The notes below the pieces were generated by a model. It did not search any database. It was not told the origin of the DNA and was given only the letters and a program-made list of their open reading frames with translations. A program made the position numbers and the translations under genes. Positions 9,512 to 50,578 of a stretch of DNA of 64,000 nt are shown one piece after another. Each line of letters begins with the position of its first letter. Position 1 is the stretch's first letter. Source of the stretch: Somniosus microcephalus (Eukaryota); NCBI GenBank assembly GCA_052327205.1, contig CM126218.1:43834001-43898000 (forward strand), written 5' to 3'.

Positions 9512-9672
9512 GGCCAGCCATTTTGCTGCAATGACTTTTGTGCAACGGATTTCTGGACAGAGACCAAGGAAGAGACCTTACTGATTTGGCCCAACATAGG
9601 AGAGGTATTTTTGGCTTCTGGCCAGAGCTTGGCAATTTGCCTCATTGTGATTTCATTGTTTGCCAGTGTATT

Positions 9673-10818
9673 ATGGGGGCTGCATTGGGTGCCAACCCTC
9701 AGTTCCAGCATTATGTGCGAAGGGCTCGCAGACGCTGTGTGAGAGGGGCAGCCATGCCTAGACGCAGAGGGGGCATCAGGCGTCGGCAACGTAGGCCTTA
9801 CCCACTCAGGGAATACCGCCAGCAGGTGTCCTATCTCACCATGACTGCCGCGCAGTGTGTTAAGAGGCTGCGCTTCAGAAGGGAGGTGGTTGCAGAGATC
9901 TGCCAGCTGCTTCACAGAGATCTGCGTCCACAGCTGATGTGCAGGACGTCTCTGTCGGTGGAAGTGAAGGTCACGGTGGCTCTGAACTTTTATGCAAGTG
10001 GCTCCTTCCAAGCCGCTGCTGGGGACATAGCTAACATATCCCAGTTCGCCGTGCATCGCTGCATCCGGCAGGTCACCGATGCCCTTTTCACAAGGAGACA
10101 CCAATTCATCTCCTTCCCCATGACCCTGGAGAGGCAGGAGCAGCGTGCAGTCGGATTTGCGAGGATCGCGGACTTCCCCATGGTGCAGGGTGCCATTGAC
10201 TGCACGCATGTGGCTTTGCGGGCACCTATCGACAATGCCGAGGATTACCGCAACCGGAAGGGCTACCATTCCCTCAATGTACAGCTGGTGTGTGACAACA
10301 GGCAGCGCATCCTAGCTGTCAATGCCCGCTTTCCAGGCAGCAGCCACGATGCATTTATCCTGCGCCAGACTACTGTGGCTGACATGTTCCAGGCACAGCC
10401 TCCCCCAAGAGGATGGCTTATCGGGGACAAAGGCTATCCTTTGTGTACATGGCTCATGACCCCGCTCCGCGCGCCCAGGACCCCTGCTGAGGAGGCATAC
10501 AACGAAAGCCATCAAGCCACAAGGAACATCATAGAGCAAACGATTGGCGTCCTCAAGCAACGGTTCCGCTGCCTGGACTGCTCCGGCGGATCTCTGCAGT
10601 ATTCGCCGGATAGAGTCTCCCAGTTCGTCGTCGTTTGCTGCATGCTGCACAACCTGGCTATCCGCAGGACTCAGGCACTGCCACCTCACGTTGGACCACC
10701 ACCTCAGGAGGAGGAGCAGGAGGACCATGAGGAGGAGGAGGAGGAGGAGTACCAGCCCAGGAGGGAGCCACAAGGTCCAAGGGCCGTCCGTCGGCGGCTT
10801 ATTGAACGACACTTCTAG
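9673..10818 (+). CDS. Harbinger DDE transposase (HARBI1-like), intact, 381 aa from the first ATG
   Basis: Motifs GAIDCTHV, NRKGYHSLNVQLVCD, FPGSSHDAFIL, LIGDKGYP, RNIIEQTIGVLKQRFRCL, CCMLHN; the track start at 9538 is a TTG. Confidence 0.93.
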   Translation: MGAALGANPQFQHYVRRARRRCVRGAAMPRRRGGIRRRQRRPYPLREYRQQVSYLTMTAAQCVKRLRFRREVVAEICQLLHRDLRPQLMCRTSLSVEVKVTVALNFYASGSFQAAAGDIANISQFAVHRCIRQVTDALFTRRHQFISFPMTLERQEQRAVGFARIADFPMVQGAIDCTHVALRAPIDNAEDYRNRKGYHSLNVQLVCDNRQRILAVNARFPGSSHDAFILRQTTVADMFQAQPPPRGWLIGDKGYPLCTWLMTPLRAPRTPAEEAYNESHQATRNIIEQTIGVLKQRFRCLDCSGGSLQYSPDRVSQFVVVCCMLHNLAIRRTQALPPHVGPPPQEEEQEDHEEEEEEEYQPRREPQGPRAVRRRLIERHF

Positions 10819-14163: not shown

Positions 14164-14295
14164 AAAAAGCAAAATACTGCTGATGCTGGAAATCTGAAAT
14201 AAAAACAGAAAATGCTGGAACTACTCAGCAGGTCAGACCGCATCTGTGGAGAGAGAAAGAGCGTTAATATTTCAGGTCGATGACCTTTCATCAGA
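14164..14295 (-). mobile_element. Penelope pLTR fragment with degenerate hammerhead core
   Basis: Reverse complement matches 18830-18958 (ctgatga-aaggtcatcgacct-gaaat...cacagatg...ccagcat). Confidence 0.8.
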
Positions 14296-21658: not shown

Positions 21659-22857
21659 GCAGTCGGGAGAGCAGGAGGCCAGTAACTGGTGAGTTTAAAA
21701 GCTCACCTTTCGGGGGCTTTTTCTTTCACAGCTGGGGCAGTCGGGAGAGCAGGAGGCCAGTAACTGGTGAATTTAAAAGCTCACCTTTCGCGGGCTTTTT
21801 CTTTCACAGCTGGTGCAGTCGGGAGAGCAGGAGGCCAGTAACTGGTGAGTTTAAAAGCTCACCTTTCGGGGGCTTTTTCTTTCACAGCTGGGGCAGTCGG
21901 GAGAGCAGGAGGCCAGTAACTGGTGAGTTTAAAAGCTCACCTTTCGGGGGCTTTTTCTTTCACAGCTGGTGCAGTCGGGAGAGCAGGAGGCCAGTAACTG
22001 GTGAGTTTAAAAGCTCACCTTTCGGGGGCTTTTTCTTTCACAGCTGGTGCAGTCGGGAGAGCAGGAGGCCAGTAACTGGTGAGTTTAAAAGCTCACCTTT
22101 CGCGGGCTTTTTCTTTCACAGCTGGGGCAGTCGGGAGAGCAGGAGGCCAGTAACTGGTGAGTTTAAAAGCTCACCTTTCGCGGGCTTTTTCTTTCACAGC
22201 TGGGGCAGTCGGGAGAGCAGGAGGCCAGTAACTGGTGAGTTTAAAAGCTCACCTTTCGCGGGCTTTTTCTTTCACAGCTGGTGCAGTCGGGAGAGCAGGA
22301 GGCCAGTAACTGGTGAGTTTAAAAGCTCACCTTTCGGGGGCTTTTTCTTTCACAGCTGGTGCAGTCGGGAGAGCAGGAGGCCAGTAACTGGTGAGTTTAA
22401 AAGCTCACCTTTCGGGGGCTTTTTCTTTCACAGCTGGTGCAGTCGGGAGAGCAGGAGGCCAGTAACTGGTGAGTTTAAAAGCTCACCTTTCGGGGGCTTT
22501 TTCTTTCACAGCTGGGGCAGTCGGGAGAGCAGGAGGCCAGTAACTGGTGAGTTTAAAAGCTCACCTTTCGCGGGCTTTTTCTTTCACAGCTGGGGCAGTC
22601 GGGAGAGCAGGAGGCCAGTAACTGGTGAGTTTAAAAGCTCACCTTTCGCGGGCTTTTTCTTTCACAGCTGGGGCAGTCGGGAGAGCAGGAGGCCAGTAAC
22701 TGGTGAGTTTAAAAGCTCACCTTTCGCGGGCTTTTTCTTTCACAGCTGGGGCAGTCGGGAGAGCAGGAGGCCAGTAACTGGTGAGTTTAAAAGCTCACCT
22801 TTCGCGGGCTTTTTCTTTCACAGCTGGTGCAGTCGGGAGAGCAGGAGGCCAGTAACT
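21659..22857 (+). repeat. 78-bp tandem monomers x15 plus a partial unit (CR1 5' end)
   Basis: gcagtcgggagagcaggaggccagtaactggtgagtttaaaagctcacctttcg(g/c)gggctttttctttcacagctgg(g/t); period exactly 78. Confidence 0.97.
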
Positions 22858-23154
22858 CTTATATAGGTGGAGCTGTTGCTAAACCCGAAACACTACAGTG
22901 TAGTGTCTCCCACCCTTCCACCTCCTCTAACCTTTTAGGGGTTAGGGGAAGTTGAAAAGGTAGGTTCAATTTATTTTATTTCAGGAGCCTAACCTAGGTG
23001 GAAAAGGTTCCAGGACAGGAGGCGGCAGTGAAAATACAACACCAGAAAACAGGTAGGTGACTGGTTGGTGAGTACTTTCACAAACTTATTCTAAGTAGAA
23101 TTCAATAATTAAGCTAAATCGTAGTAAATAAAAGGGTATTGTAAGGGTTAAGTC

Positions 23155-24093
23155 ATGGAAGGGCAGCTCGGACCCGTGTCATGCTCCTCCTGTGCCATGT
23201 GGGAAATCAGGGACACTGTCCCTGACAACTATGTGTGCAGGAAGTGTGTCCAGCTGCAGCTCCTAGCGGACCGCATGGCGGCGCTGGAGCTGCGAATGGA
23301 CTCACTCTGGAGCATACGCGATGCTGAGGATGTTGTGGATAGCACATTCAGTGAGTTGGTCACACCGCAGGTAAAGGCTAGCTCAGACAGTAAATGGGTG
23401 ACCAAAAGGCAGGGTAAAGGCAGGAAGGTAGTGCAGGAGTCACCTGCAGTCATCTCCCTCCAAAACAGGTTTACCGTTTTGGGTACTGTTGGGGGAGATG
23501 ACTTATCAGGGGAAGGCACCAGCAGCCAGGTTCAGGGCACCATGACTGGCTCTGCTGCACAGAAGGGCGGGAAAAAGAGGGATAGGGCTATAGTGATAGG
23601 GGATTCAATTGTAAGGGGGATAGATAGGAGTTTCTGTGGCCGAGACCGAGACTCCAAGATGGTATGTTGCCTCCCTGGTGCAAGGGTCAAGGATGTCTCG
23701 GAGCGGGTGCAGAGCATTCTGAAGGGGGAGGGGGATCAGCCAGTTGTCGTGGTACATGTAGGTACCAACGATGTAGGTAAAAAGAGGGAGGAGGTCCTAC
23801 AAGCTGAATTTAGGGAGTTAGGAGCTAAATTGAAAAGTAGGACCTCAAAGGTAGTAATCTCTGGATTGCTACCAGTGCCACGAGCTAATAAGTTTAGAGA
23901 GAGTAAGATAGATAAGCTAAATACGTGGCTTGAGCAGTGGTGCAAGGGAGAGGGATTTAAATTCTTGAGGCATTGGAACCAGTTCTTGGGGAGGAGTGAC
24001 CTGTACCAAGGGGATGGTCTACACCTGAACTGTGAGGGAGCCGATGTCCTCGGGGTAATATTTTCTAGGGCGGTTCGGGAGGATTTAAACTAA
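23155..24093 (+). CDS. CR1 ORF1: zinc finger/leucine zipper plus SGNH esterase
   Basis: CSSC..CRKC then heptads; GDSIVR, CLPGARV, HVGTND, DGLHL blocks. Confidence 0.93.
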   Translation: MEGQLGPVSCSSCAMWEIRDTVPDNYVCRKCVQLQLLADRMAALELRMDSLWSIRDAEDVVDSTFSELVTPQVKASSDSKWVTKRQGKGRKVVQESPAVISLQNRFTVLGTVGGDDLSGEGTSSQVQGTMTGSAAQKGGKKRDRAIVIGDSIVRGIDRSFCGRDRDSKMVCCLPGARVKDVSERVQSILKGEGDQPVVVVHVGTNDVGKKREEVLQAEFRELGAKLKSRTSKVVISGLLPVPRANKFRESKIDKLNTWLEQWCKGEGFKFLRHWNQFLGRSDLYQGDGLHLNCEGADVLGVIFSRAVREDLN

Positions 24094-24140
24094 TTTGGCA
24101 GGGGGATGGGAACCTAGGTAGTGGAAAAGAGGGAAGTCAT

Positions 24141-27050
24141 ATGAAGTCAGAAATAGATGGTAGAAAGGTGAGAAGCAATAAGCAAAGGAGAGAAACACAA
24201 AGGGCCAAACTAATTCATAATGAGAGTGTGAAAAAAGCAAGCCTGAAGGCTTTGTATCTTAATGCTAGAAGCATTAGGAACAAGGTGGATGAATTAGTTG
24301 TGGAAATAGAGGTAAACAAGTATGATTTGATTGGGATTACAGAAACGTGGCTGCAGGGTGGGCAAGGCTGGGAACTTAACATCCAGGGATATACAATATT
24401 TAGGAAGGATCGGCAAAAAGGTAGGGGAGGTGGGGTAGCATTGCTGGTAAAGGAGGGGATTAATGCAATGGAAAGGAAGGATATTAACTCAGATGAAACG
24501 GAATCTGTATGGGTAGAAATGAGAAATAGCAAGGGGAGGAAAACGTTAGTGGGTGTGATATATAGGCCTCCAAATAGTAATATGGAGGTGAGGGAAGGCA
24601 TAAAAAGGGAAATTAGAGAAGCGTGCGATAAGAGCACAGCTGTCATCATGGGTGACTTTAATTTACATATTGATTGGACTACCCAAATTAGTAAAAATTC
24701 TGAGGAGGAGGAATTCCTGGAATGTTTTCGGGACGGTTATCTGGACCAATATGTCGAGGAGCCGACTCGAGATCAGGCCATTTTAGACTGGGTATTGTGC
24801 AATGAGAAGGGACTTATCAGCAATCTTCTTGTACGAGGCCCCTTGGGTCAGAGCGATCATAATATGATCGAGCTCTCAGTCGAGATGGAGAGTGAGGAAA
24901 TTGAATCCGAGACTAAGGTCCAGAACTTAAATAAAGGGAATTACGAGGGTATGAGACGGGAATTGGGTAAGGTTGATTGGGTGGTGTTTCTGGGGGGATT
25001 GACAGTGGATAGACAATGGCAAGCATTCAAAGATAGAATGGAAGAATTCCAGAACATGTTTATACCGGTTTGGCATAAAAATAAACCTAAAAAGGTGACT
25101 CAACCGTGGATAACGAGGGAAATTAGGGACAGCATAAAATCAAAAAAAAGGGCATATCAACTGGCAAAAAAAAGCACCAGACCGGAAGCTTGGGGGCAGT
25201 ACAGGATACAGCAAAAGAGGACAAAGGGATTAATCAGGAAGGGGAAAATAGAATACGAAAGTAAACTTGCAGCAAACATAAAGACAGACTGCAAAAGCTT
25301 TTATCGGTATATCAGGAGGAAAAGACTGGTAAAATCCCAAGTCGGTCCCTTGCAGTCCGATTCGGGAGAATATATAATGGAGGATAAGGAAATGGCAGAC
25401 CAATTAAACTCATACTTTGGTTCTGTATTCACAAAGGAGGACACAAATAACCTCCCAGGAATATCGGCAAACATAGGGACTAATGAGAGGGAGGAGCTGA
25501 CAGAAATTAGTATCTCTAGGGATATGGCGTTGGGTAAGTTGAGGGGACTGAAGGCCGACAAATCCCCGGGGCCTGATAAACTACATCCTAGGGTACTTAA
25601 GGAGGTGGCCCTGGAGATAGCAGATGCTCTAAGGATCATCTTCCGGAACTCCATTGACTCGGGAACAGTACCCGTGGATTGGAGGGTAGCTAATGTTACC
25701 CCAATATTTAAAAAGGGGGGTAGAGAGAAAGCAGGGAATTATAGACCAGTAAGCCTTACATCGGTTGTGGGCAAAATGCTAGAGTCCATTATTAAGGATA
25801 AAATAGCGGAGCACTTGACAAATGGGGAAAAGATCGGACAGAGTCAACATGGATTTACAAAGGGTAAATCGTGTTTGACTAATCTGCTGGAATTTTTTGA
25901 GGAAGTAACTGGTAAAATAGATGGGGGAGAGCCAGTGGATGTGGTGTACCTTGACTTCCAGAAAGCCTTCGATAAGGTTCCACACAAAAGATTATCATGC
26001 AAAATTAAGGCTCATGGGATTGGGGGCAAAGTATTAACGTGGATAGAGAACTGGCTGGCGGATAGAAAACAGAGAGTTGGAATAAACGGCTCGTTTTCGG
26101 AGTGGCAGGCAGTGACCAGCGGGGTGCCGCAAGGATCTGTCCTGGGACCCCAGCTGTTCACAATATATATAAATGATCTGGATCAGGGAATTGGATGCAA
26201 TATTTCCAAATTCGCTGACGACACTAAACTAGGAGGAGGGGTGGGCTCTGATGAGGATGTCAGGAGGCTACAGTGCGATTTGGACAGGTTGGGGGAATGG
26301 GCGGATACGTGGCAGATGCACTATAATGTGGATAAATGCGAGGTTATCCACTTTGGGGGTAAAAACAGGAGGGTAGATTATTATCTAAATGGCAATAGAT
26401 TGGGAGATGGGGAAGTGCAGAGGGACCTGGGTGTTCTTGTGCACCAGTCACTGAAGGAGAGCATGCAGGTGCAACAGGCGATTAAGAAGGCAAATGGTAT
26501 GTTGGCCTTCATATCAAGGGGGTTCGAGTATAGGAATAGGGATACCTTACTACAGCTGTACAAGGTGCTGGTGAGACCGCATCTGGAGTATTGTGTACAG
26601 TTTTGGTCGCCCCATCTGCGGAAGGATGTTCTTGCCATGGAAAGAGTGCAACGGCGATTCACCAGGCTGATACCTGGAATGGCGGGAATGACCTACAAAG
26701 AGAGATTAAATAGTTTGGGCTTGTACTCACTGGAGTTTAGAAGATTGAGAGGGGATCTCATCGAAACATATAAAATTATGGCAGGCCTGGACAGGCTGAA
26801 TTCAGAGAGAATGTTTCCAATGGCCGGGGAGCACAGAACCAGGGGCCACAGTCTAAAAATAGCGGGCAAATCATTTAAAACAGAGATGAGGAAGAATTTC
26901 TTCACTCAAAGAGTGGTGAGCCTGTGGAATTCCCTGCCACAGAGGGCTGTGAAGGCTAATTCAATAAATATTTTCAAGAGAGAATTGGATATATTTCTGA
27001 AGGCTAAGGGGATTAAGGGTTACGGAGAAAAGGCGGGGACGGGGTACTGA
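24141..27050 (+). CDS. CR1 ORF2: AP endonuclease plus reverse transcriptase, uninterrupted 969 aa
   Basis: YLNARS, ITETW, YRPP, MGDFN, SDH; KSPGPD, NYRPVSL, YLDFQKAFD, GVPQGSVLGP, FADD. Confidence 0.97.
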   Translation: MKSEIDGRKVRSNKQRRETQRAKLIHNESVKKASLKALYLNARSIRNKVDELVVEIEVNKYDLIGITETWLQGGQGWELNIQGYTIFRKDRQKGRGGGVALLVKEGINAMERKDINSDETESVWVEMRNSKGRKTLVGVIYRPPNSNMEVREGIKREIREACDKSTAVIMGDFNLHIDWTTQISKNSEEEEFLECFRDGYLDQYVEEPTRDQAILDWVLCNEKGLISNLLVRGPLGQSDHNMIELSVEMESEEIESETKVQNLNKGNYEGMRRELGKVDWVVFLGGLTVDRQWQAFKDRMEEFQNMFIPVWHKNKPKKVTQPWITREIRDSIKSKKRAYQLAKKSTRPEAWGQYRIQQKRTKGLIRKGKIEYESKLAANIKTDCKSFYRYIRRKRLVKSQVGPLQSDSGEYIMEDKEMADQLNSYFGSVFTKEDTNNLPGISANIGTNEREELTEISISRDMALGKLRGLKADKSPGPDKLHPRVLKEVALEIADALRIIFRNSIDSGTVPVDWRVANVTPIFKKGGREKAGNYRPVSLTSVVGKMLESIIKDKIAEHLTNGEKIGQSQHGFTKGKSCLTNLLEFFEEVTGKIDGGEPVDVVYLDFQKAFDKVPHKRLSCKIKAHGIGGKVLTWIENWLADRKQRVGINGSFSEWQAVTSGVPQGSVLGPQLFTIYINDLDQGIGCNISKFADDTKLGGGVGSDEDVRRLQCDLDRLGEWADTWQMHYNVDKCEVIHFGGKNRRVDYYLNGNRLGDGEVQRDLGVLVHQSLKESMQVQQAIKKANGMLAFISRGFEYRNRDTLLQLYKVLVRPHLEYCVQFWSPHLRKDVLAMERVQRRFTRLIPGMAGMTYKERLNSLGLYSLEFRRLRGDLIETYKIMAGLDRLNSERMFPMAGEHRTRGHSLKIAGKSFKTEMRKNFFTQRVVSLWNSLPQRAVKANSINIFKRELDIFLKAKGIKGYGEKAGTGY

Positions 27051-28324
27051 ACTGGTAAGATCAGCTATGATCTCAGACGAAGATCAGCCATGATCTCATT
27101 GAATGGCGGAGCAGGCTCGAAGGGCCGAATGGCCTACTCCTGTTCCTATCTCTATGTTTCTATGTTTACTACTGTTGTAAGAATCTCAGGAAAAAAAATT
27201 AAAGCTGCATTTCCTTAAATTTTATAAATTGGGTATTCGATAAAATAATATGCAAAGTTTTGAAGTCTGTTTTTAAAAGTCCAAGAATTAAGAAAGATTT
27301 AACACCATATTCTCATCAAGAGTTCTTCAAAAGCCTGTTGCTATTAAAAAGTTAAGTAAACTCTCTTCTGCACAATTTACACCTGTAAACTCGTGACCAA
27401 GAGTTCATGTTTCCCTTTTCTAAAAATGTATTTCAATTGATTTCTTATGCAATGGTTTAATGACATCTATGTCACAGTCTTTCACTGTTAATAGGTGATT
27501 GCCTGAGAATGCAGCACCAAACCTTTACTCGCGACCTTCGGCCTCCTGCTGATTTTACCGCCGGAAAGAGTACATTGCACGGGAGCTTCTGCGCTGCGCT
27601 CATTTAAATCAGCAGGCAGCACCAAAACATCGATGCTGCCTGCGCTCTTTTTGCAGGCGGCCGCTAACCTTGGCCCGCGATGACACTTGTTCGGGCTTAA
27701 TCGAATTTCTAGGCCTCTATCTTTGTTTTCATTTCCATTAAAAAATAACCCTGGCCGCCACATAAAAATCAGACTACCTTTACAGTTAGTCGTCTCAATT
27801 GGCATGGCTACAGACACACCAAACAATGACAGACTTCTGTATCTTGGCAAATAAAAAGAAGCAATAGCATCTTACAGTATCATGAAATCCTATTTTATTG
27901 CTCAGTGTCCACTTCCGCCATCTGCTGCTGCTACACCAGTCTTCCCAAGTCTTGATTGTAAATTTGGTACTTTGTTAAGGGGGGGAGTTATTTAATAAAA
28001 GTGTCTAGAGTTTGAATTAATGCTTCTCATTGGGCTTTATCATTGAAAACATATGTTGACAATGATTTTATTGATTAATAAATGCGATTAAGTATGTAGG
28101 AAATGTTCTGAGTTCACCAAAAATCCCTACAAATCTTGTGAGCATCTACCAGTTTCCACTGACCCTGCTCATTTACAAGCAACACACATATTTCTTTTTT
28201 TTTTACATAAAATGATCTTGAAATAGATCAATATTTTTTTACATTGTAGTTTATTCATATGCTGCCCCTATCCCAAAGATCCACGTCTACTGACTGCATC
28301 ACTGCAAAGTAGATGAGGCCTATA

Positions 28325-28453
28325 TGCCCTGGAGTTTAGAAGAATGAGAGGTGATCTCATTGAAACATATAACATTCTTAATGGGCTTGATAGGGTGGAT
28401 GCTAGGAGGATGTTTCTCCTGGCTGGAGAGTCTAGAACCAGGGGTCACAGTCT
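28325..28453 (+). mobile_element. CR1 ORF2 C-terminal fragment
   Basis: ctggagtttagaagaatgagaggtgatctcattgaaacatat...ggtcacagtctc. Confidence 0.8.
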
Positions 28454-28726
28454 CCCTGCATCCACCCAGTCAAGCCCTTTAAGAATTTTGTACTAATGAA
28501 ATCACCTCTCATTCTTCTAAACTATCGGGAATATAGGCCTAGTCTACTCAATCACTCCTCATAGGACAATCCCCTCATTTCAGGATTCAGTCTAGTGAAT
28601 CTTCGTTGCACTCCCTCTAAGGCAAGTACATCCTTCCATAGTGTGGAGATGCCGGTGTTGGACTGGGGTGGACAAATGTAAGAAGTCACACGACACCAGG
28701 TTATAGTCCAACAGTTTTATTTGAAA

Positions 28727-28763
28727 TCACAAGCTTTCGGAGCGCTGCTCCTTCGTCAGGTGA
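28727..28763 (-). ncRNA. Minimal hammerhead ribozyme (left arm)
   Basis: Reverse complement: tcac-CTGACGA-a-ggagc/agc/gctcc-GAAA-gc-TT-gtga. Confidence 0.82.
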
Positions 28764-29321
28764 AGTGGAGAGATGCATAAAGACACAGCTTATATAGTCA
28801 GAGAATAATGCCAGATGATTACAGGTAATCTTTCTAACTGCCATTTATCACACCTCGGCAGAGAGATAATCACAGCAATCAAAGGTGTGAATGGTGTCCA
28901 AACAGGTCAGTCAGGAAAACATTACATCAAAGAACAATGAGGTGGAGTCACAAGGGGTCAAATGTTGCAGATGCTGGGGTCTGTATGAAAAACAAAAAAC
29001 AGACAAAAAAACATTTTTTTGCTGGAAATCACAGATGCGGCCGGACCTGCTGTGATTTCCAGCAAAAAAAATGTTTTTTTGTCTGTTTTTTGTTTTTCAT
29101 ACAGACCCCAGCATCTGCAACATTTGACCCCTTGTGACCCCACCTCATTGTTCTTTGATGTAATGTTTTCCTGACTGACCTGTTTGGACACCATTCACAC
29201 CTTTGATTGCTGTGATTATCTCTCTGCCGAGGTCTGATAAATGGCAGTTAGAAAGATTACCTGTAATCATCTGGCATTATTCTCTGACTATATAAGTTGT
29301 GTCTTTATGCATCTCTCCACT

Positions 29322-29358
29322 TCACCTGATGAAGGAGCAGTGCTCCGAAAGCTTGTGA
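29322..29358 (+). ncRNA. Minimal hammerhead ribozyme (right arm)
   Basis: tcac-CTGATGA-a-ggagc/agt/gctcc-GAAA-gc-TT-gtga; palindromic helix III AAGCTT. Confidence 0.82.
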
Positions 29359-30652
29359 TTTCAAATAAAACTGTTGGACTATAACCTGGTGTCGTGTGAC
29401 TTCTTACATTTATCCTTCCATAGGTAAGGTGACCAAAACTGTACACAGTATTCCAGGTGTGGTCTCACCAAGGACCTATATAATTGTAGTAAGACTTCTT
29501 AACTCTTATACTCCAATCCTCTTGTAATAAGGGCCAACATACCATTTGCTTTCCTAATTGCTTGCTGTACCTGCATGTTAACTTTCTGTGATTCGTGTAC
29601 AAGGACACCCAGGTCTCACTGAACACCAACATTTCCCAGTCTCTCACCATTTAAAAAATCATTCTGCTTTTCTATTTTTCCTACCAAAATGGATACCTTC
29701 ACACTTCTCCACATTATATTCCATCTGCCATGTTCTTGCCCACTCACTTAAGCTGTCTATACCCCTTTGCAGCCTCGTTGCATATAAGGGAAGATCTGGA
29801 ACAAGAGGCATTTGCTACAAAGCACAGTACTGCAAAAAGCTACCACTGCACCGTCCCCTCCATTCAGGACCAAAATAAAATGGTAATCAGAAGCAACTTG
29901 AGATTTTGTAAGAGCTGTCCATCAATCACAGGAACCACGATGAGCATGCTTGCACTAAAAAGCATGTTTTACACAAATACATTGATCGGTTCTCAATTAA
30001 GTTAAAAAAAAACATTGATAACTCACTCAAGAGTCCACAACTCAAAGGACTAGTACAATGACATTGTGAAACCCAACAGAACAGTGAAGTGTTCCTCCCC
30101 AATTGATTATGTAAACTCTGAATCAATTAAAAACTCTTCTGCTTGTCACCAACAAAAAAAACACAAGCATTAAAATTAAAAACCTTAGTGGCACTTGAAT
30201 CATTCGGCCACTATTGCTGTTGAAAAGTCAATGGCATAGATTTCTAATGGAATGTATGAATATAATGCAATCATGTAATTTGCATCAGAAGACATGGTTG
30301 CACTGCTCACGGAAGATGTATAATGACACATGTGTCTTTGCCTCCCTGAATCAACAATGATCCCACTTTAGGGCTACAAATGTTCAAAAAGCACAACTAA
30401 TGATGTAGGCAAATTGTTTGTGATCTTCGGGAATCTTCTTTGAAAACAGTGATGAAAAAGGACTTTTCACTTATGTTAGTAATTGATAGAAATTATGTTA
30501 ATCTATCAGATTTTAAATGGAGCCGGGAAGGTGAGGACTGAGCAAACTTCATCTTGGACCCCCAGGAAATTGTCATATTCTTTCCTCTGATTTGGGAAGC
30601 CTCGCAAATGTTTAACAGTTGACTTTCCCCGCCCCCCCCCAGTAAAATCATA

Positions 30653-34478: not shown

Positions 34479-34836
34479 GCATCTACAAGATGCACTGCAG
34501 CAACTCGCCAAGGCTTCTTCGGCAGCACCTCTCAAACTCACGACCTCTACCACCTAGAAGGAAAAGGGCAGCAGGTGCATGGGAAGACCACTGCCTCCAA
34601 GTTCTCCTCCAAGTCACACACCAACCTGACTTGGAAATATATCGCCGTCGCTCCATCGTCGCTGGGTCAAAATCCTGGAACTCCCGACCTAACATCACTG
34701 TGGGAGCACCTTCACCACACGGACTGCAGCAGTTCAAGGCGGCAGCTCACCACCACCTTCTCAAGGGCAATTAGAGATGGACAATAAATGCTGGCCTTGC
34801 CAGCGACACCCACATCCCATGAATGAATAAAAAAAA
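34479..34836 (+). mobile_element. LINE 3' fragment of a second CR1/L2-group family
   Basis: IYKMHCSNSPRLLRQHL...SWNS; same family as 35650-36147, 43530-43640 and 48602-48956. Confidence 0.8.
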
Positions 34837-35308
34837 TCAAACCCTACGAAGATGGCCTGATGGCATCCTTTGGCGGATCCCTTTTCCTCCAAATGTGGGT
34901 GTCTTCCTGAGCACCAGGAGCAGAGTGATAACTCTGTACTCATCCCTTTGAGAACTACAGGATTTGGACTACAGTTTTCTTAATGGCCCTAGCAACATTT
35001 AACTCTCTGGCATTATTACATAGCTGATGGCTTAATAGGGGTAATATTCCCATGGTTAGGGTTGATATGATTGTTGACCATTTTGAAATTCCTGTTTCTT
35101 ACAGTTCTAACATTTACTTGGTAGAACACTGTGCTAACCACACTTTTTATGTTTTTAACTTTTCTAAATTATGCATCAAAAGTAGCACATGAAACTCAGT
35201 TGTATGCATTACAAAGAATAACACAAACGATAATTTATTTCAGTCTTATGACTTATCTTGTAATTTGTTTACATAACAGTGACTGTACTACAAAGGTAAT
35301 CCATTGAT

Positions 35309-35378
35309 CGTAAAGCGCTTTGCAAGATCCTGGGGATGCGAAAGGTGCTTTATAAATGCACGTCCTTTCTTTTTTCTT
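35309..35378 (+). mobile_element. L2/DeuSINE 3' tail remnant
   Basis: gtaaagcgctttg...gaaaggtgctttataaatgca...ctttctttt. Confidence 0.6.
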
Positions 35379-35465
35379 GCTTATATCATCTGAACCCATG
35401 AATGTGTCACACATTCCAGCGCAAGTATTATCCAATGCATCAGAACCATTGACAACATACAATAC

Positions 35466-36431
35466 AGACTCGCATTTCTACAGTGACTTTCACGACCACC
35501 GGATGTCCCAAAGCACCTTACAGCCAATGAAGTACTTTTTGAAGTGTAGTCACTGTTGTAATGTAGGAATCGCAGCAGCCAATTTGCGCACAGCAAGCTC
35601 CCATAAACAGCAATGTGATAATGACCTGATAATCTGTGATGGTTAGTGATTTTTTTTATTCGTTTATGGGATGTGGGCATCGCTGGCAATGCCAGCATTT
35701 ATTGCCCATCCCTAATTGCCCTTGAGAAGGTGGTGGTGAGCCACCTTCTTGAACCGCTGTAGTCCGTGTGGTGAAAGTACTCCCACAGTGCTGTTAGGGA
35801 AGGAGTTCCAGGATTTTGACCAAGCAACGACATACTTCTAAGTCAGGATGGTGTGTGACTTGGAGGGGCTGGCGTTCCCATGCACCCGCTGCCCTTGTCC
35901 TTCTAGGTGGAAGAGGTCGCGGGTTTGGGAGGTGCTGCCGAAGAAGCCTTGGCGAGTTGCTGCAGTGCATCTTGTAGATGGTACACATTGCAGCTACAGT
36001 ACGCCAGTGGTGGAGGGAGTGAATGTTTAAGGTGGTGGATGGGGTGCCAATCAAGCGGGCTGCTTTGTTCTGGATGGTGTCGAGCTTCTTGAGTGTTGTT
36101 GGAGCTGCACTCATCCAGGCAAGTGGAGAGTATTCCATCACATTCCTTACTAGTACATGTTGATTGAGGGATAAATATTGAGGGATAAATAACTCCCCTG
36201 CTCTTCTTCGAAATAGTGCCATGGGATCTTTTACGTCCACCTGAGAGAGCAGACGGGGCCTCGGTTTAAAGTCTCATCCGAAAGACGGCACCTCCGACAG
36301 TGCAGCACTCCCTCAGCACTGCACTGGAGTGTCAGCCTGGATTTTAGTGCTCAAGTGTCTGGAGTGGGACTTGAACCCACAACCTTCTGACTCAGAGGTG
36401 AGAGTGCTACACACTGAGCCACAGCTAACAC
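35466..36431 (-). mobile_element. Full DeuSINE (SacSINE1-like) split by a LINE fragment
   Basis: Reverse complement: tRNA head (tggctcagtg..., ggttcaagtccc), Deu domain (gtgccgtctttcggatgagac...aaaagatcccatggcactatttcgaagaagagcagggg), L2-type tail. Confidence 0.85.
35650..36147 (-). mobile_element. LINE 3' fragment nested in the DeuSINE
   Basis: MEYSPLAWMSAAPTTLKKLDTIQNKAARLIG...IYKMHCSNSPRLL. Confidence 0.85.
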
Positions 36432-41471: not shown

Positions 41472-43370
41472 TTTCCAACTGTTTCTCCCTATCTCTGCTC
41501 GATTAAATCCCTTCATAATTTTGAACACCTCTATTAAATATCCCCTTAACCTTCTCTGCTCTAAGGAGAACAATCCCAGCTTCTCCAGTCTCTCCATTTA
41601 CCTGAAGTCTCTCATCCCTGGTACCATTCTAGTAAATCTGCTCTGGACCCTCTTCAAGGCCTTGACATCCTTCCTAAAGTGTGGTGCCCAGAATTGGACA
41701 CAATACTCCAGCTGAGACCTGACTAGTGATTTATAAAGGTTTAATATAGGTTCTTTGCTTTTGTACTTTATGCCTCTATTTATAAAGCCCGGGGTCCCAG
41801 GTGCTTTTTTAACAGCCTTATCAACTAGTGAAAGAGGAGGTAGTTGAGATACTGGATGGGATAAAAATTGATAAAGAGGAGGTACTAGAAAGGCTGGCTA
41901 TCCTTAAAGTTGATAAGTCACCAGAACCAGATGGGATGCATCCTAGGATGCTGAGGGAAGTAAAGGTGGAAATTGTGGAGGTACTGGCCATAATCTTCCA
42001 ATCCTCCATAGATATGGGGGTGGTTCCAGAGGACTGGAGAATTGCAAATGTTACACCCTTGTTCAAAAAAGAGTGTAAGGATAAACCCAGTAGTTTGACC
42101 TCAGTAGTGGGGAAGCTTTTAGAAACAGTAATCAGTGACAAAATTAACAGTCACTTGGACAAGTGTGAATTAATTAAGGAAAGCCAGCATGGATTTGTTA
42201 AAGGCAAATAATGTTTAACGAACTTGATTGAGTTCTTTGATCAGGGTAATGCAGTTGATGTAGTGTACATGGATTTCCAAAAGGTGTTCAACAAAGAGCC
42301 ACATAATAGGCTTGCCAACAAAGTTGAAGCCCATGGAATAAAAGGGACAGTGGCAGCATGGATAGGAAATTGCCTAAGTGACAGGAAGCAGAGAGTAATG
42401 GTGAACGGTTGTTTTTCAGACTGGAGGAAGGTACACAGTGGTGTTCCCCAGGGGGCGGTACTAGGACCACTGCTTTTCTTGATATATATTAATGACTTGG
42501 ACTTGGGTGTACAGGGCACAATTTCAAAATTTGCAGATGACACAAAACTTGGAAGTATAGTGAACAGTGAGGAGGATAGTGATAGACTTCAAGAAGTCAT
42601 AGACAGGCTGGTGGAATGGGCGGACATGTGGGAGATGAAGTTTAACGCAGAAAAGTGCAAAGTGATACATTTTGGTAGGAAGAATGAGGCGAGGCAATAT
42701 AAACTATAAGGGTGCAAAAAAGATTAACAAGAATGGTTCCAGGGATGAGGGACTTCAGTTACGTGGATAGTCTGGAGAAGCTGGGGTTGTTCTCCTTAGA
42801 GCAGAGAAGGTTGAGAGGACATTTGATAGAAGTGTTCAAAATCATGAGGGGTCTGGACAGAGTAGAGAGAGAGAAACTGTTCCCATTGGCAGAAGTGTCG
42901 ATAACCAGAGGACACAGATTCAAGGTGATTGGCAGAAGATCCAAAGGCGACATGAGGAAAAACTTTTTTCCGCAGCGAGTGTTTAGGATCTGGAATGCAC
43001 TGCCTGAAAGGGTGGTGGAGGCAGATTCAATCGTGGCTTTCAAAAAGGAATTGGATAAGTACCTGAAGGAAATAAAAATACAGGGCTGTGGGGAAAGGGC
43101 GGGGGAGTGGGACTAGCTGAAGTGCTCTTGCAGAGAGCCAGCATGGGCTCGATGGGCTGAATAGTCTCCTTCTATGCTGTAACTATTCTATGTTTCTATG
43201 ATTCTAATGTGTCCTGCCACCTTCCAAGATTTGTGTATGTGAACACCCAGGTCTCTGTGTTGCTGCACCCCTTTCAAAATTGTATCATTTAGTTTATTTT
43301 GCCTTTCCTCATTCTGCCTTCCAAAATGCATCACTTGACACTCTGCATTGAATTTCATCTGTCATGTATC
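41472..43370 (-). mobile_element. CR1 fragment (41472-41826 and 43206-43370) interrupted by an opposite-strand CR1
   Basis: RLEKLGLFSLEQRRLRG on minus; sequence resumes after the insert. Confidence 0.78.
41827..43205 (+). mobile_element. 5'-truncated, internally deleted CR1
   Basis: KSPEPDGMHPR, GVPQGAVLGP, FADD, RRLRGHL, (ttctatg)n tail. Confidence 0.9.
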
Positions 43371-43529
43371 TGTGCTTCAGTCTGAAGTAAATGGATCTTT
43401 GGACTGTGTTTGGAGAGTTTTTTGTGGTTTCTTGATGTTTTCTTTTTAAGAACGTTAAATTGCAAATAATGCAGGGTTTGACCAACATATGCACTAAATT
43501 GCTAGATTGCTAGGACAGTGTCAGTAATG

Positions 43530-43640
43530 AAGCAGTTCAGGAAGTCGGCTCACCACCACCTTCTCAAGGGCAATCAGGAATGGACAATAATTGCTGGCTT
43601 TGCCAGCGACGCCCATATCCCGCGAATGAATTAAAAAAAA
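43530..43640 (+). mobile_element. LINE 3' tail (family of 34479-34836)
   Basis: gctcaccaccaccttctcaagggcaat...gaatgaattaaaaaaaa. Confidence 0.75.
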
Positions 43641-44656
43641 TAATTCACCTGGAGTTTATATTTGAATTTCTTCCATCAATAAACTAACTTATTTTAAAGT
43701 GAAAAAGAATTCAGTACAATATAAACAATATTGAACATCTTTAGCTTAGCCTTTCTCTGTTCATTGCTCTGTGTTACCAGCCGTATGCTGATGGTGCAGA
43801 AATGTTTTGAATTCTCTTTCTTCAGCGATCTTAAAACTATTAATTAACTCAACCATAGCATAATGTCCTTGAATATGTTTGAAATTTATTAATATTTCTC
43901 TGCAGCATTAAATGCAAACTATCTAATTAAATCTTAAACTTAAACACAAGCTCAGTTTGATTACTAAATATAAATCAGTTCCTGTGTTGGGTTAGAAGAT
44001 ATTCCCCTAATTGCTACAATCAACTCAATTAAATTCTATGACCTCTACAGTGTGCATTAATTATACTGCTGTTACATTGTTACTTCCCCCCAATAATATT
44101 GACTAAGATATTAATCTTGGAGAAAGAATAATCCTTATCTGAATATTACTAATTAAATGATATTTCCTGTTCATCTTTATGTATCACCTTTCCCTTCTTC
44201 TTGAGGGCTTTATCCTCCGTAGTACTTTTAATTTAATTGTATTACCTCCACTCTTGCTGATAGTTAACGTACCGGATTATTTCCTTATGTTGTTGCTCAC
44301 TTTCTTCTTCAGGATCGGTTACTTTTGCTCTGTTTTGTCAGGAAGCTGTGAGAACCTGATGGGGAACAGCTTCTTTGCTAACCCAGAGAGACACTAGTTC
44401 ACGGAAGGGCCTTTTCTGGAGGGTCTGTAGAAGCAAAAGATCTACAAGCCGCAAGTCGAATGAGCCACAAGTCAAAGTGGGCACTGACTGTACCATGTGT
44501 GCTTGACTGGGAGCAGTTCCATTCTAATCCAGGATGACACCAACTCCCTGAGGTTCCTTTTCCAGAAGGTGTGGGGCAGCAAAAGAGCTGCTTGGACTTG
44601 GAGAAGAAAGTTAGTTTGGAAAGTGCTTGCTCCGTTGTCATGGTAATAGTACCTGG

Positions 44657-45403
44657 GGGCCAGAAATTCAGGTCGGAGGCTTCCCGTGGGTGCAAGCCTC
44701 CGACCTGCACTTAGCTACCGCGCCGGCCATTGTGCTGTGGGCCCGCGTGGGATTCCGATCCTGGGCCTGCTCCAGCTGCCGGCGCGCAGTGCTTGCGTAT
44801 CCCAGGGGCGCAGTTAGTTCGAAGCGTCGCCTGGGATCACGTGGGCCATGGGGAGCCAATGATAGCAGGGAACCTCTATTCATAGATTTGACAGAAAGAC
44901 CTGTCAAATCTATGAATAGAGATCGGCCCCAAAACATAACTAAAACTTCAAATAAATTTTTTTAAAACATCACATTTCTAAAATAACTATAAATTACATA
45001 AAATAACTATTTTAAACAATAATTTAAATTTTGAAAAAATTAATTACAGTTTTTAATGGGGCTAAAAATAAACTTACCATTCTTTAAAGTATTTAAAAAT
45101 AATAAACCTGTGGAAAAATGTTTTTAATTTTACTTAATTCACCACTTACCTTGTTAAAAGCAGGCCTTGCGACTGCTTTTTAAAAGTATAGCTGCTGGAG
45201 ACTTACCCTCCCGGAGAAACCTGTAAAAAAAATGGAAGTTTCAGGCGTCGCGCTGCCTCTCCGGCGCACGCGTTCGACCTGTGAACCCCTTCCTTCAAGG
45301 GAACGGAAGTTCCGGTTTCCAGCGCATGCGCAGTGCATGCACGAAACCGGCACTTTAGTTGACCCAACGCGTACTCACCCGTGGGGACCCGAATTTCTGG
45401 CTC
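44657..45403. mobile_element. Harbinger-type MITE, inverted homolog of 15647-16414
   Basis: GGGCCAGAAATTC / GAATTTCTGGCTC; internal perfect 21-bp stem at 44874-44921; TSD not intact. Confidence 0.82.
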
Positions 45404-45711
45404 TATTAATAGTGACAGTGAGCTTTATCTCTGCCTGGGCTGTCAGCAATGCAGTACACTGTTAAGAATTCCATAATCCTTCTCACATTGCAATTTTTTT
45501 TTGTGTGAGAAACATTCTGGATTGCATTGGGAATCTCTCATTCCTGGAAAAATGGACAGATTCCTCCACTCCCATAAGTGGTATATTTTGATCATTTGGG
45601 GCAGTACCATTACCACTTCTCACAAACATGTCTAAGTCACACAAAGATTTTCCAATGTCCTGTAGTGATTGCCAGGTTTGTTTTTAAACTCCCTCAACTC
45701 ATCTCACTCAA

Positions 45712-46710
45712 TAACAACAACTTGCATTTATATAGTGCCTTTAACGTAGTAAAATGTCCCAAGGCGCTTCACAGGAGTGTAATCAGACTAATATTGACAC
45801 TGAGCCAAAGAAGGAGACATTAGGACAAGTGACCAAATGCTTGGTCAAAGAGGTATGTTTTAAGCAGCATCTTAAAGGGGGAGAGCGAAGTGGAAGGGCG
45901 ATGAGGTTTGAGGAGGGTATTCTAGAGCTTAGGGCCTAGACGGCTGATGGCGCAGCTGCCAATGGTGGAGCGAAGGAAGTGGGGGATGCACAAGCGGCCA
46001 GAGTTGGAGGAATACCGAGTTCTCGGAGTGTTGTTGGGCCCTGAGGAGGTATGGAGAGAGAGAAGGGCGAGGCCCTGGAGGGATTTGAACACGACGATGA
46101 GAATTTATAATCGAGGGATTTGTGGACCGGGAGCCAATGTGGGTTAGCGAGCACTGGGGTTGATGGGTGAACGGGACTTGGTGCGAGTTCGGACACTGAC
46201 CGGGAGCCAATGTAGGTTAGCGAGCACTGGGGTTGATGGGTGAACGGGACTTGGTGCGAGTTCGGATTCGGGCAGCAGAGTTTTGGATGAGCTCAAGTTT
46301 ATGGAGGGTGGAAGAAGGGAGGCCGGCCAGGAGATCATTGGAATAGTCGAGTCTGAAGGTAACAAAAGTATGTTTCCGAGTGACTTCTATTTATTATCTT
46401 TGTCTTAACTTTCCAACACTTCCAATTCAATAATATCCAATTCAATAAGCAAGCTTTGATGCCATTTTGTTTTTGTTTATCTGTTCAGTGTATTAATGTA
46501 GGATGCATGTTTGCGTTTTGCTAGCTGGTTTACTTGAATGTCTTCCAATGAGTTTCAGCATCAGCAGATGGGCTGAGGCAGGGGGGAGACGGGCGATATT
46601 ACAGAGGTAGAAGTAGGCGATCCTTGTGATGGAGAGGTTTATGGGGTTGGAAGCTCAGCTCGGTCAAATAGGTCGGCGAAGTTGCGAACAGTATGGTATA
46701 GTTTGGTACA
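45712..46710 (-). mobile_element. L2 LINE 3' portion with a 72-bp internal duplication and an interruption at about 46370-46545
   Basis: LDYSN..LAGLP...[12 protein letters not shown]-type C-terminus; direct duplicate at about 46126 and 46198. Confidence 0.82.
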
Positions 46711-48062
46711 GACCCCAGGGACACTTAAAATTACATTGGTCTGTTTATCTAAAAATAATACAGAAACTTTCCTGTTTTAGCATCACAGTCTCTGCTTCTC
46801 ACAGTGAGGTAAGGGGAAATATATTTTTAGTCACAGGAGATCGAAGTCAGATGAACTTTACTTTTTATTCCCCTCTGCTTATTTTCAGTTTCTAATTTCT
46901 TCATCCAATTATCTCTCTGGTTCTTCTTCCCTCCTCTGCTTCATCGGTGCTTGAAGTGTTTGGAGGACTGCTGCGATGAGGGGATAACGTGGTCAATCAG
47001 AACCACCTGATAGCTGGGGCCTGAACTATTTTGTAGCACTTTGGGAAACAGCCAATGAGTGGATGGAAATGCCAGCATAGCTGCCCTGCTAGTCTGTGAC
47101 TGAATGTATGTCTGCAAGGTCACCAATAGGCTAGAGTGCATGCTGTCTATAATCTGCCAACCCCTTCATATTACAGCAGTGACAGCCCCTTATCTTTGCT
47201 TTTTTTTCTATTATCATAAAGAATATGGAAGTACAGGTACAACTTACTTACCTTAGCCTCTGAGACACAAAAACTGTAGCCATCATATCCACAATCTCTT
47301 TTTCTCCAATCATAGTATCTTAGAATAGTTACAGCACAGAAGGAGTAGCTGTACTTTTTAGGGATAACATAATGGTAGTAGAAAAAGTGATGTAGATATC
47401 GGCAAGACAAAAATAGAATCCATATGGATAGAGATAAAAGATAGTGGAAGGGAGGTGGAGGAAGAAATATGCAGACAAAATCGGGAAATGAGTAAAAAAC
47501 ATAGAATAATAATCATGAGGGATTTCAACTACCCAATAATAATTGGACAGAAGAGGTAGGTAAAGGGGATAAGGGAATGGAGTTCCTACAACGTGTACAG
47601 GACTCCTTTCTAACCCAATATGTAAAAAGCCCAACAAGGAAGGATTCACTATTGGATCTAGTAATGGGGAATGAACCAGAGCAGATAAGAGAAGTAAAAG
47701 TAGGGGAACATATAGGCAATAGTGACCATAGTATAATATGCTTTAAGATGATAATTGGGAAGAACATAAGTATGACAAAAGCCAGGTTGGAGAAAAGCTG
47801 GTTTTGAATGGCTGAGAATAGAACTTGGGGGGGGGGGGGGTGGGGGGGGGGAATGGGCAACAATATTGGCAAACAAGGATGTAGAACAGCAATGGGAAAC
47901 ATTTAAAACAGTGTTCAACGGAGTGCAGGAAAAATATATTCCGCTAAAAGGAAAGAACAAACTAAACAATAATGAGACTCCATGGATGAATAAAGCCATA
48001 AGGGAACAATTGAGGGTAAGGAAAGAGGCAAACATTAATACATAGACAGCAGGGGAGTGTGT

Positions 48063-48328
48063 TTGGAGAAAAAGAGATTGTGGATATGATGGCTACAGTT
48101 TTTGGTGTCTCAGAGGCTAAGGAAAGTAAGTTGTACTTCCATATTCTTTATGATAATAGAAAAAGAAAGCAAAGATAAGGGGCTGTCACTGCTGTAATAT
48201 GAAGGGGTTGGCAGATTATAGACAGCATGCACTCTAGCCTATTGGTGACCTTGCAGACATACATTCAGTCACAGACTAGCAGGGCAACTATGCTGGCATT
48301 TCCATCTGCTCATTGGCTGCTTCCCAAA
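48063..48328 (-). repeat. Inverted copy of flanking sequence 47040-47309 inserted in the CR1
   Basis: Reverse-complement match with a few substitutions and small indels. Confidence 0.92.
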
Positions 48329-48601
48329 GAGAGAATATGAAAAGGTTAGGAGAGAAGTCAAAAAACAATTAGGGAGGCAAAGAGGAACTATGAAACTAAA
48401 TTATCAAGGAACATAAAACAAAATAGTAAAATATTTTATAGGCACATCAATAAAAAAGGAAGGTTGGGATGGGAGTAGAGCCATTAAGGGATAGACAGGA
48501 TAATACCACAGGTAACGATAGAGAGATGGCAGAAACATTAAATAATTATCTTGCTTCAGTATTTACCAGGGAGATAGAACAGGTGGACATGACATTAGAT
48601 G

Positions 48602-48956
48602 AAGATGCTCTGCAGCAACTCGCCAAGGCTTCTTCGGCAGCACCTCCCAAACCCGCGACCTCTTCCACCCAGAAGGACAAGGGCAGCAGGCGCATGGGAA
48701 CACCACCACCTCCAAGTTCCCCTCCAAGTCACACACAATCCTGACTTAGAAGTATATCACCGATCCTTCATTGTCGCTGGGTCAAAATCCTGGAACTCCC
48801 TACCTAACAGCACTGTGGGAGTACCATCACCACACAGACTGCAGCGGTTCAAGAAGGCGGCTCACCACCACCTTCTCAAGGGCAACTATGGATGGGCAAT
48901 AAATGCTGGCATTGCCAGCAACGCCCTGATCCCATAAACGAATAAATAAAAAAAAG
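48602..48956 (+). mobile_element. LINE 3' fragment nested in the CR1
   Basis: CSNSPRLLRQHLPNPRPLPPRRTRAAG...SWNSLPNS. Confidence 0.85.
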
Positions 48957-50578
48957 ATTAGTAATGAGATAAGTGCATTTAAAATTGAAAAAGGGGATAT
49001 ATTAAATAAACTAATCAAACTCAAAGAGGATAAATGGTCCGGATGGATTGCATCCATGCATTTGAAAAGAATCTAGTGAAGAGATAGCAGAGGCATTACT
49101 ACGCATATTTAATAATTCATTAGAAAAAGGTGTAATGCCAGAGGACTGGCGGATAGCTAACGTAATACCGATATTTAAGAAGGGGGATAGAACATGTCCA
49201 GCGAATTATAGACCAGTCAGCTTAACATCGGTGGTAGGAAAAATAATGGAATCCTTACTAAAGGAGAAAATAGAAGAACATCTAGAAACCAAAAATATAA
49301 TAATGAATAGTCAGCATGGATTTCAAAAGGGAAAGTCTTGCTTGGCCAACCTCATTGAATTTTTTGAAGAGGTAACAGAGAGAGTAGACAATGGTAATGC
49401 AGTAGATGTAATTTATCTAGCTTTTCAAAAGGCCTTCGATAATGCACCCCATAATAGACTGAGGAACAAGGTCAGAGAATACAGAGTCAGGGGACAAGTA
49501 GCAGAATGGATTGCTGGCTGGCTTCAGGACAGAAAGCAGAGAGATGGGGTAAAAGGTAGCTATTCACAGTGTCAGAAGGTGCTGGGACTACTGCTGTTCA
49601 CAATTTTCATTAACAATTTAGACTTTGGAATCAAAAACACAATTTCTAAATTTGTGGATGATACCAAATTGGGGGGATAGTCAATACTGAGGAGGACTGC
49701 AACGAATTACAGGAGGACATTAATAAACTAGCAGAATGGGCATATAATGGGCAAATTAAGTTCAACACAGATAAATGTGAGGTATTACATTTTGGTAGTA
49801 AGAATAGGGAGGTCACTTATCACTTGGAGGGTGCGTGTCTGGGTGCGGTAGAGGAACAAAGGGATCTGGGAGTACAAATACATAAATCACTAAAAGTTGT
49901 GACACAGGTTAGCAAGGCCATAAAAAAAGCAAACCAAGCACTAGGGTTTATTTCTAGAGGGATAGAATTGAAAAGTAGTGAAGTTATGCTAAACCTGTAT
50001 CGAACCTTGGTTAGACCACACTTAGAGTACTGTGTACAGTTCTGGTCGCCATATTATAAAAAGGATATAGAGGCACTGGAGAGGGTGCAAGAAAGATTTA
50101 CAAGGATGATACCAGAAATGCGAGGGTATACATATCAGGAAAGGATGAACAGGTTGGGTCTCTTTACTCTTGAAAAAGAAGGCTGAGGGGTAACCTAATA
50201 GAGGACTTTAAAATCATGAAAGGTTTTGATAGAGTGGATACAGAGAGAATGTTTCCACTTGTGGGGAAGAGCAAAACTAGAGGCCATCAATATAAGATAA
50301 TCACCAAGAAATCCAATAGGGAATTCGGAAGAAACATCTTTACCCAGAGTGGTGAGAATGTGGAACTCGCTACCACAGGGACTGGTTGAAGCCAATAGTA
50401 TAGATGCATTTAAGGGGAGGCTAGACAAGCATATGAGGGAGAAGGGAATAGAGAGTTATGCTGATAGGTTTAGATGAGGAAAGATGGGAAGAGGCTCGAG
50501 TGAAGCATAAACACTGGCATGGACCAGTTGGGCCGAATGGCCTGTTTCTGTGCCGCATATCCTATGTAATCCTATGTA

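Follow-up and report, generated by a model that had tools for sequence, protein, structure and literature searches.

All coordinates below refer to the window, the whole 64,000-nt stretch of DNA that was analysed (C17:43834001-43898000 of the 6.45-Gb genome). The window has repeats of shark-like appearance. It contains a near-perfect palindrome with a hammerhead on each strand, confirming what the earlier note had described. Local alignment of the two halves pairs the left arm (28670-29034) with the right one (29050-29415, reverse-complemented); its 366 columns contain 6 substitutions and 1 gap. Two of the substitutions (28744 and 28755) lie at CpG, and another (28673/29412) already falls within the right TSD. 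A spacer of 15 nt (29035-29049) separates the arms and is flanked by CACAG (29030-34) and CTGTG (29050-54). The TSD of 12 bp, ATCCTTCCATAG, occurs at 28630-28641 and again at 29412-29423, enclosing a piece of 770 bp (28642-29411) that went in whole. The left flank (28447-28637) matches the CR1-like ORF2 of the window at 26814-26620 and the right flank (29412-29776) matches it at 26627-26264. Since both flanks are in register on this ORF2 with an overlap of 12 bp, the target was continuous before the insertion, in line with the single insertion proposed earlier. About 32 extra nt are present on the left arm only (28642-28673); they correspond to the 'tail' of Penelope-like elements (PLEs), which the earlier note had left unnamed. 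In the window copy the spacer continues the parent sequence of the tail-less arm. Element and TSD match exactly over 1 and 0 nt, with near-matches past one mismatch.

Table 1. Features of the palindromic insertion and its target, in window coordinates.
Position	Strand	Feature	Basis
28447..29776	-	Host site: old CR1-like LINE fragment, 72-74% to ORF2 24069-27050, split by the insertion	
28630..28641	+	Left TSD, 12 bp, ATCCTTCCATAG	Register against the CR1-like ORF2 copy
28642..28673	-	PLE 'tail', ~32 nt, absent from the other arm; its parental copy stops directly before the ORF start codon	
28670..29034	-	Tailed arm, from the parent's 3' end (pLTR, Neptune type); ~-397 to -31, counted from the next ATG	
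28727..28763	-	Minimal type I hammerhead, core start 28759; predicted cut between 28731/28730, after CUU	Numbering by comparison with PMC4209133
28789..28796	-	TATA-like TATATAAG, outward-pointing; putative promoter	Sequence, mirror of the 29289 site
29030..29034	.	CACAG, 5-nt overlap common to both arms (joining microhomology)	
29030..29411	+	Tail-less arm, parent position ~-417 to -35	
29035..29049	+	15-nt spacer, which in the parent adjoins the tail-less arm sequence without a break	
29289..29296	+	TATA-like TATATAAG, ~30 nt 5' of the hammerhead, outward-pointing; putative promoter	
29322..29358	+	Minimal type I hammerhead, core start 29326; predicted cut between 29354/29355, after CUU	
29412..29423	+	Right TSD, 12 bp	

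Other elements lie elsewhere in the window. A CR1/L2-type LINE occupies 21659-27050, with a GDSL-esterase ORF at 23152-24093 and a 993-aa APE-RT frame at 24069-27050, and is preceded by a 78-bp tandem array of 15.4 copies at 98%. Beside the palindrome lies an inverted pair (28308-28548) matching CR1-like sequence of the window; further inverted pairs are found at 34480-35980, 42709-51039 and 47039-48329, and all of these pairs are 77-95% alike. A DDE_Tnp_4 (Harbinger-type) transposase frame is located at 9535-10818. LTR-retrotransposon pol frames (protease, RT, RNase H, integrase) are located at 54880-58839 and 62081-63998, the second copy being inverted and 74-78% alike.

Both hammerhead cores (29326, +, CUGAUGA; 28759, -, CUGACGA) are followed by GAAA. 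Helix I (4 bp, UCAC/GUGA) and helix II (5 bp, GGAGC/GCUCC) are present in the MFE structure of each 47-nt motif, while helix III, read off the sequence, is the palindromic tetramer AGCU and the cut triplet is CUU. Both arms have an extra A after A9 and a G10.1-C11.1 pair, which makes them minimal type I hammerheads as these are described in the accessible part of PMC4209133, so the minimal ribozymes with a palindromic helix III postulated earlier are indeed present. Searching the window with Rfam gave zero matches at the gathering threshold; at E up to 10 there were 34 matches, to generic hairpin families below their cut-offs, and 0 to hammerhead families. The predicted cofolding minimum does not contain an AGCU-paired dimer, a result that is neutral as to activity. 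For the full 770-nt transcripts folding predicts a hairpin of -682 or -670 kcal/mol, depending on the strand, and a helix II probability of 0.0, as would be expected if the ribozyme were sequestered in a read-through hairpin, which is what the earlier note had suggested. For RNA beginning just past the TATA-like box at 29289 the predicted helix II probability is ~0.9. According to these predictions a read-through transcript would bury its ribozyme within a duplex of ~365 bp, and because there is only one sense ribozyme per transcript, such an RNA is without a partner ribozyme in cis. For both reasons the window copy is most likely inert, and the hammerheads are passengers carried by the pLTR. 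Across the family N7 of the core varies between U, C and A, and a young subfamily (L060, L061, L062, L066, L069 and L070, including the intact tandem) has the core CUGAAGA. Minimal hammerhead cores at 18830 (+) and 14294 (-) of the window belong to the ends of a different Penelope family.

The sequence adjoining the arms at other loci identifies them as the 3' end of a Penelope element, and the pLTR origin claimed in the earlier note thereby holds. At locus L070 the element forms a direct tandem repeat with a unit of 3148 nt, the organisation that gives a pLTR, and an intact ORF of 891 aa is located at L070:1925-4600. Its RT is recognized by Pfam (RVT_1, E 1.3e-9). By eye, the ORF contains a CX4CxxC linker (CHSNLCKTC), in agreement with the definition of CX2-5CxxC before the GIY-YIG domain, and a GIY-YIG-type motif, VYLIRCRKGCPGAWYIG, which has two Cys inside it and is followed by R, H, E and N; Pfam assigned no family to the last 166 aa of the 891-aa ORF and did not detect the endonuclease. 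According to the accessible text of PMC8557442, from which this definition is taken, the linker marks the Neptune and Nematis clades. Genome-wide there are 10,957 exact sites of an unfolded 21-mer and 8,239 of a second 17-mer. The parent is an abundant autonomous Penelope of Neptune type, a designation based on the linker motif and the host group, with ~11,000 ends. It shows the features of a canonical EN+ PLE: a single ORF with RT and C-terminal GIY-YIG (the latter by eye), tandem arrangement, a tail at one end and a TSD around the unit.

The 3' end of the parent is composite, in a part of the 3' UTR (L070:4606-4660) that continues into window positions 29030-29115. A decayed second hammerhead follows directly past the ORF stop; downstream of it the sequence resembles the end of another Penelope family, with 84% identity to window 14214-14257 over 44 nt. 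After this captured part comes the intact hammerhead that belongs to the family itself. The CACAG/CTGTG match sits in the captured part, and the two window copies of the other Penelope family have CTGAG at the corresponding site.

About half of consecutive family copies have the inverted form. In 100 consecutive sites, adjacent pairs within 7 kb were inverted with the tails outward in 14 cases, direct in 2 and inverted with the tails inward in 1. The first 39 sites represent 30 distinct insertions after merging of 7 pairs and 2 apparent segmental duplicates; in a manual count pLTR ends on both sides were found in 14/30, partial inversion in 5/30 and none in 11/30. One tailed and one tail-less end were present in 33/33 two-ended inverted loci, a set that left out loci with an end outside the sequence retrieved and those that were truncated, rearranged or not inverted. 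The ends of L010 and L090 are ~10 nt short. A TSD was detected in 27 of 34 loci and measured 12-14 bp in 25. Irrespective of the target, the tail-less end lies 8-18 nt beyond a fixed anchor; for the tailed end the position relative to the ATG is between -4 and +6 in 26/27. The exact match of element to TSD has a mean length of 1.3 nt at the tailed and 1.8 nt at the tail-less end versus ~0.4 by chance, values somewhat inflated by the choice of the longest TSD. The position of the tail-less end is thus fixed to an interval of ~10 nt and microhomology just fine-tunes it. The earlier note had the right end of the palindrome set by resemblance to the target (tttgtcc/tttatcc), which finds no support, given that the tail-less end falls in the same interval in every copy.

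Palindromes of this family range in size from that of the window copy up to ~4.9 kb. In 16/33 loci the tail-less arm exceeds the tailed one in length; among unselected loci (without 5 chosen for their junction, 1 tie and 2 complex ones) the tail-less arm is longer in 8 and the tailed arm in 17. A central overlap of at least 2 nt was seen in 19/32 loci and untemplated or locally duplicated letters in 9, as judged from BLAST edges. The largest example, L062 (C1:39444900-39451500), is a near-perfect palindrome whose arms abut without a spacer and whose TSD measures 12 bp. At L061 and L063 central insertions of ~10 nt duplicate adjoining sequence; junction inserts copying neighbouring sequence are a feature of polymerase-theta-type joining. 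For L031, L035, L038 and L079 (on C1) and for L099 the 5' ends of the arms seem concentrated between parent positions ~-397 and -455, close to the decayed hammerhead, in a small sample chosen for this region; pausing, initiation or cleavage at this place could account for it. In some loci the arms differ at subfamily-diagnostic sites (4 in L054, 2 each in L031 and L058), a hint of two non-identical pLTR templates.

The central junction of the window palindrome recurs. Its exact 20-nt sequence is present genome-wide at 7 loci (the window, L002, L003, L004, L005, L007 and L018), and hence is not unique, and a neighbouring junction was found at L006. L002, L003, L005 and L006 each have their own TSD of 12-14 bp, so that the junction recurs with other TSDs, a possibility raised in the earlier note; rearrangement or loss of part of one arm is seen at L004, L007 and L018. 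The spacer continues the tail-less side in 4 of the 7 junction loci and the other arm in 3 (L004, L018 and L007, the last with a stub second arm). Two further 17-mer hits were discarded because they are no palindromes: L098 matched by chance, and L099 consists of a solo tailed arm with the identical truncation point. As controls, three other real junctions were taken, one of which includes a private variant; each occurred once genome-wide, and the CACAG/CTGTG join is therefore a modest hotspot. The last 500 nt of the parent contain 114 5-nt matches of this kind. The earlier note was right that the inversion pivots on a pre-existing inverted match, yet folding of the parent RNA or the cDNA strand gave a pair probability of 0.0, and on this prediction a hairpin role for CACAG/CTGTG was rejected.

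We determined the relationship of the junction copies from an alignment of 57 arms, in which both arms were included for 25 loci. In the junction-type loci (n=5) the arms diverge by 1.2% within a locus versus 3.1-4.0% between loci (3.1% between tailed arms, 4.0% between tail-less arms and 3.6% across), and there are no alleles specific to either kind of arm. At 16 non-CpG diagnostic columns, arms of the same locus agree in 387/400 cells. It counts against a separate origin at each locus that just 27/50 arms have their partner as the closest arm, mostly since copies of young subfamilies are closer than decayed partners; for the two window arms the partner ranks 5th and 2nd. Placing the junction label on the tree takes 9 changes, the junction arms form one clade in 0/200 bootstrap trees (the bootstrap not having fully settled) and an AU test on the 11 junction arms rejects one clade with p-AU 8e-55. 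The junction loci comprise at least 5 haplotypes, all of which also occur in ordinary long copies. Because the junction loci fall in different subfamilies and a single clade is rejected, these palindromes were built separately from different source elements.

In LINE-1 twin priming cDNA synthesis is primed from a second nick as well, and microhomology links both cDNAs within a TSD; the 5' segment becomes inverted and the 3' end is not duplicated. In the present family, by contrast, the 3' end would be where both primers begin, which would double the sequence into a palindrome. The window element is probably best read as a doubly 5'-truncated, inverted insertion of the Neptune-type element which arose in one event, with both nicks priming and the cDNAs joined at CACAG/CTGTG. 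After a 12-bp staggered cut both nicks would prime reverse transcription of element RNA, one cDNA beginning at the start site of the tail and the other ~33 nt upstream. One short cDNA would end in CACAG and the other in CTGTG; the two would then anneal, followed by fill-in. We infer two separately primed cDNAs and their microhomology-mediated joining from the following considerations. A simple fold-back switch on one cDNA, as favored by the earlier note, fails for a cDNA started at the tail-less end, with which the spacer is continuous, because it cannot template the tail. It also fails for a cDNA started at the tail, because the spacer would then sit on the tailed arm. The tail on the other arm thus calls for a second, separately primed cDNA. 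With two cDNAs both spacer polarities are expected, and both are seen; at single loci the same polarity may also result if recombination of the two arms inverted the spacer afterwards.

Such a flip would rescue a fold-back of a single cDNA, in which reverse transcription from the tail stalls, snaps back on CACAG/CTGTG, goes on with its own cDNA as template and exits ~33 nt early, the spacer being inverted later by arm recombination. We regard this as rather unlikely. That the arms nearly always carry the same subfamily alleles agrees with it, as do the 3 of 7 junction loci with the spacer on the other arm and the roughly twofold excess of longer tailed arms at unselected loci, a result to be expected if some insertions were true fold-backs. 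However, a spacer flip would be required in 4 of the 7 junction loci and, on a kilobase scale, in L016, L029, L067 and L092. The pivot is not a predicted hairpin, the constant interval in which the second arm ends, and which matches a second RT start site, is left unexplained, and the young locus L003, with 0 differences between its arms in 305 columns, has the longer arm on the tail-less side. It is highly improbable that the palindrome is a non-autonomous mini-element transcribed and re-inserted as a unit, a reading the data largely refute. The shared junction at 7 loci, with intact copies of nearly equal length that have their own TSD, and the placement of L001 and L002 in the same subfamily are compatible with it; against it stand the haplotypes common to ordinary long copies, the scattered position of the junction arms on the tree, the lack of arm-specific alleles, the presence of both spacer polarities and the ratio of 7 copies to ~11,000 ends. 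The non-autonomous fold-back family considered in the earlier note consequently dissolves into junction copies from different subfamilies of an autonomous element.

We also considered a hairpin RNA or endo-siRNA source at this locus used by the host, to which we attach hardly any weight. The very stable hairpin in the predicted read-through RNA and the detection of family RNA on both strands fit this idea. A search of sequencing runs listed no RNA run with this sequence; the RNA data consisted of two RNA-seq samples sharing the species label of the best-matching run, of which ~24% and ~31% were read. In these partly read runs, however, depth was zero on the unique flanks (28200-28313 and 29796-29900) and dipped at private variants of the arms, and 96 and 198 reads had unfolded parent sequence at the centre. 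Private variants of this copy lie at 28946, 29234 and 29297. Among the 12 ORFs scanned in the window no host gene was recognised, and much longer family palindromes exist (L062). We make no claim on editing, because the variant letters in RNA are family variants also found in DNA contigs. Finally, the chance that the palindrome is an assembly or chimeric-read fold-back artefact is close to negligible. Of the contig pieces listed from two public data sets, none spans 28200-29900: contigs match the unique flanks without differences and break in the repeat, and none of the 15 contig joints shown of 75 had RNA support. An artefact is nevertheless hard to reconcile with a 12-bp TSD in a continuous target, 7 arm differences, a tail on a single arm and the occurrence of the same junction on five contigs with differing TSDs and subfamily alleles.

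The reading with two primed cDNAs can be compared with published systems, which are cited here from the accessible parts of the respective papers. Inverted pLTRs with a tail and a TSD are known for canonical EN+ Penelope-like elements (Arkhipova et al. 2013, PMC3846280; Craig et al. 2021, PMC8557442). These share with the present family an inverted 5'-truncated copy next to a direct copy, a tail of 30-40 nt at one end, a TSD around the unit and a short central overlap, which is 15 bp in Pen2a_Av. In the window, by contrast, both copies are truncated within the 3' UTR and the ORF is absent. The TSD measures 12-14 bp in the present family versus 8-10 bp in EN+ PLEs of A. vaga, and one central junction is independently reused at 7 loci, in which the family differs from the published EN+ PLEs as far as the accessible text describes them.

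Minimal hammerheads of PLEs have a low activity as dimers in vitro, and in Schistosoma dual minimal hammerheads are located on opposite strands ~100-700 bp apart (PMC4209133, accessible part). The window motifs resemble those of Schistosoma in the core, the extra base between 9 and 10.1, the G10.1-C11.1 pair, the palindromic 15.2-16.2 and the 4-bp helix I. Helix II, however, is 5 bp long in the predicted window ribozymes and 7-8 bp in the Schistosoma families. Non-LTR retrozymes (bioRxiv 10.64898/2026.07.22.740005, available text) are, like the window palindrome, non-coding and PLE pLTR-derived with a type I hammerhead. Retrozymes are head-to-tail tandems with at least 2 ribozymes on a single strand, whereas the window palindrome is inverted, has one ribozyme per strand and forms no self-propagating clade.

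PAc, the PLE protein of Poseidon of Anolis, was modelled as a dimer and nicks and extends both strands in vitro (Frangieh et al. 2024, PMC11167929). Two RT start sites bound the tail, and the hammerhead is not needed for insertion in vitro. PAc belongs to the Penelope/Poseidon clade and has its start sites 111-118 nt into the ORF, whereas the tail of the present family ends at the ATG. Initiation by PAc is described as non-homologous to the target, whereas the genomic ends of the present family show a modest excess of 1-4 nt matches. The accessible part of that account offers no model for inverted products. A literature search with key subscription papers outside its reach found neither a dual-priming model for PLE inversions nor a palindromic non-autonomous PLE.

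In summary, the palindrome is a short example of the usual insertion of a Neptune-type Penelope, a known element class, with no new ribozyme family, and the locus is one among thousands of decaying Penelope insertions. It serves as a caution that identical palindromes may recur without forming a MITE-like or retrozyme-like family. Both the asymmetry between the ends and the arm on which the spacer lies argue for two primed cDNAs and tie the genomic structure to the start sites found in vitro. We lean slightly towards the wider view that Penelope routinely integrates by dual TPRT, in which the two nicks are tied to the tail-including and the tail-less RT starts on the same or sibling RNAs and the products are joined by microhomology. 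If true, this rule would account at once for the tail, for the presence of an inverted copy and for a TSD of 12-14 bp. The origin of this structure is described as undefined in the accessible text of PMC8557442, and the window locus is a clean small example of it. The rule of one tail per insertion and the reuse of the junction provide useful evidence on the mechanism, and the sevenfold independent use of CACAG/CTGTG offers a ready minimal substrate for in vitro work.
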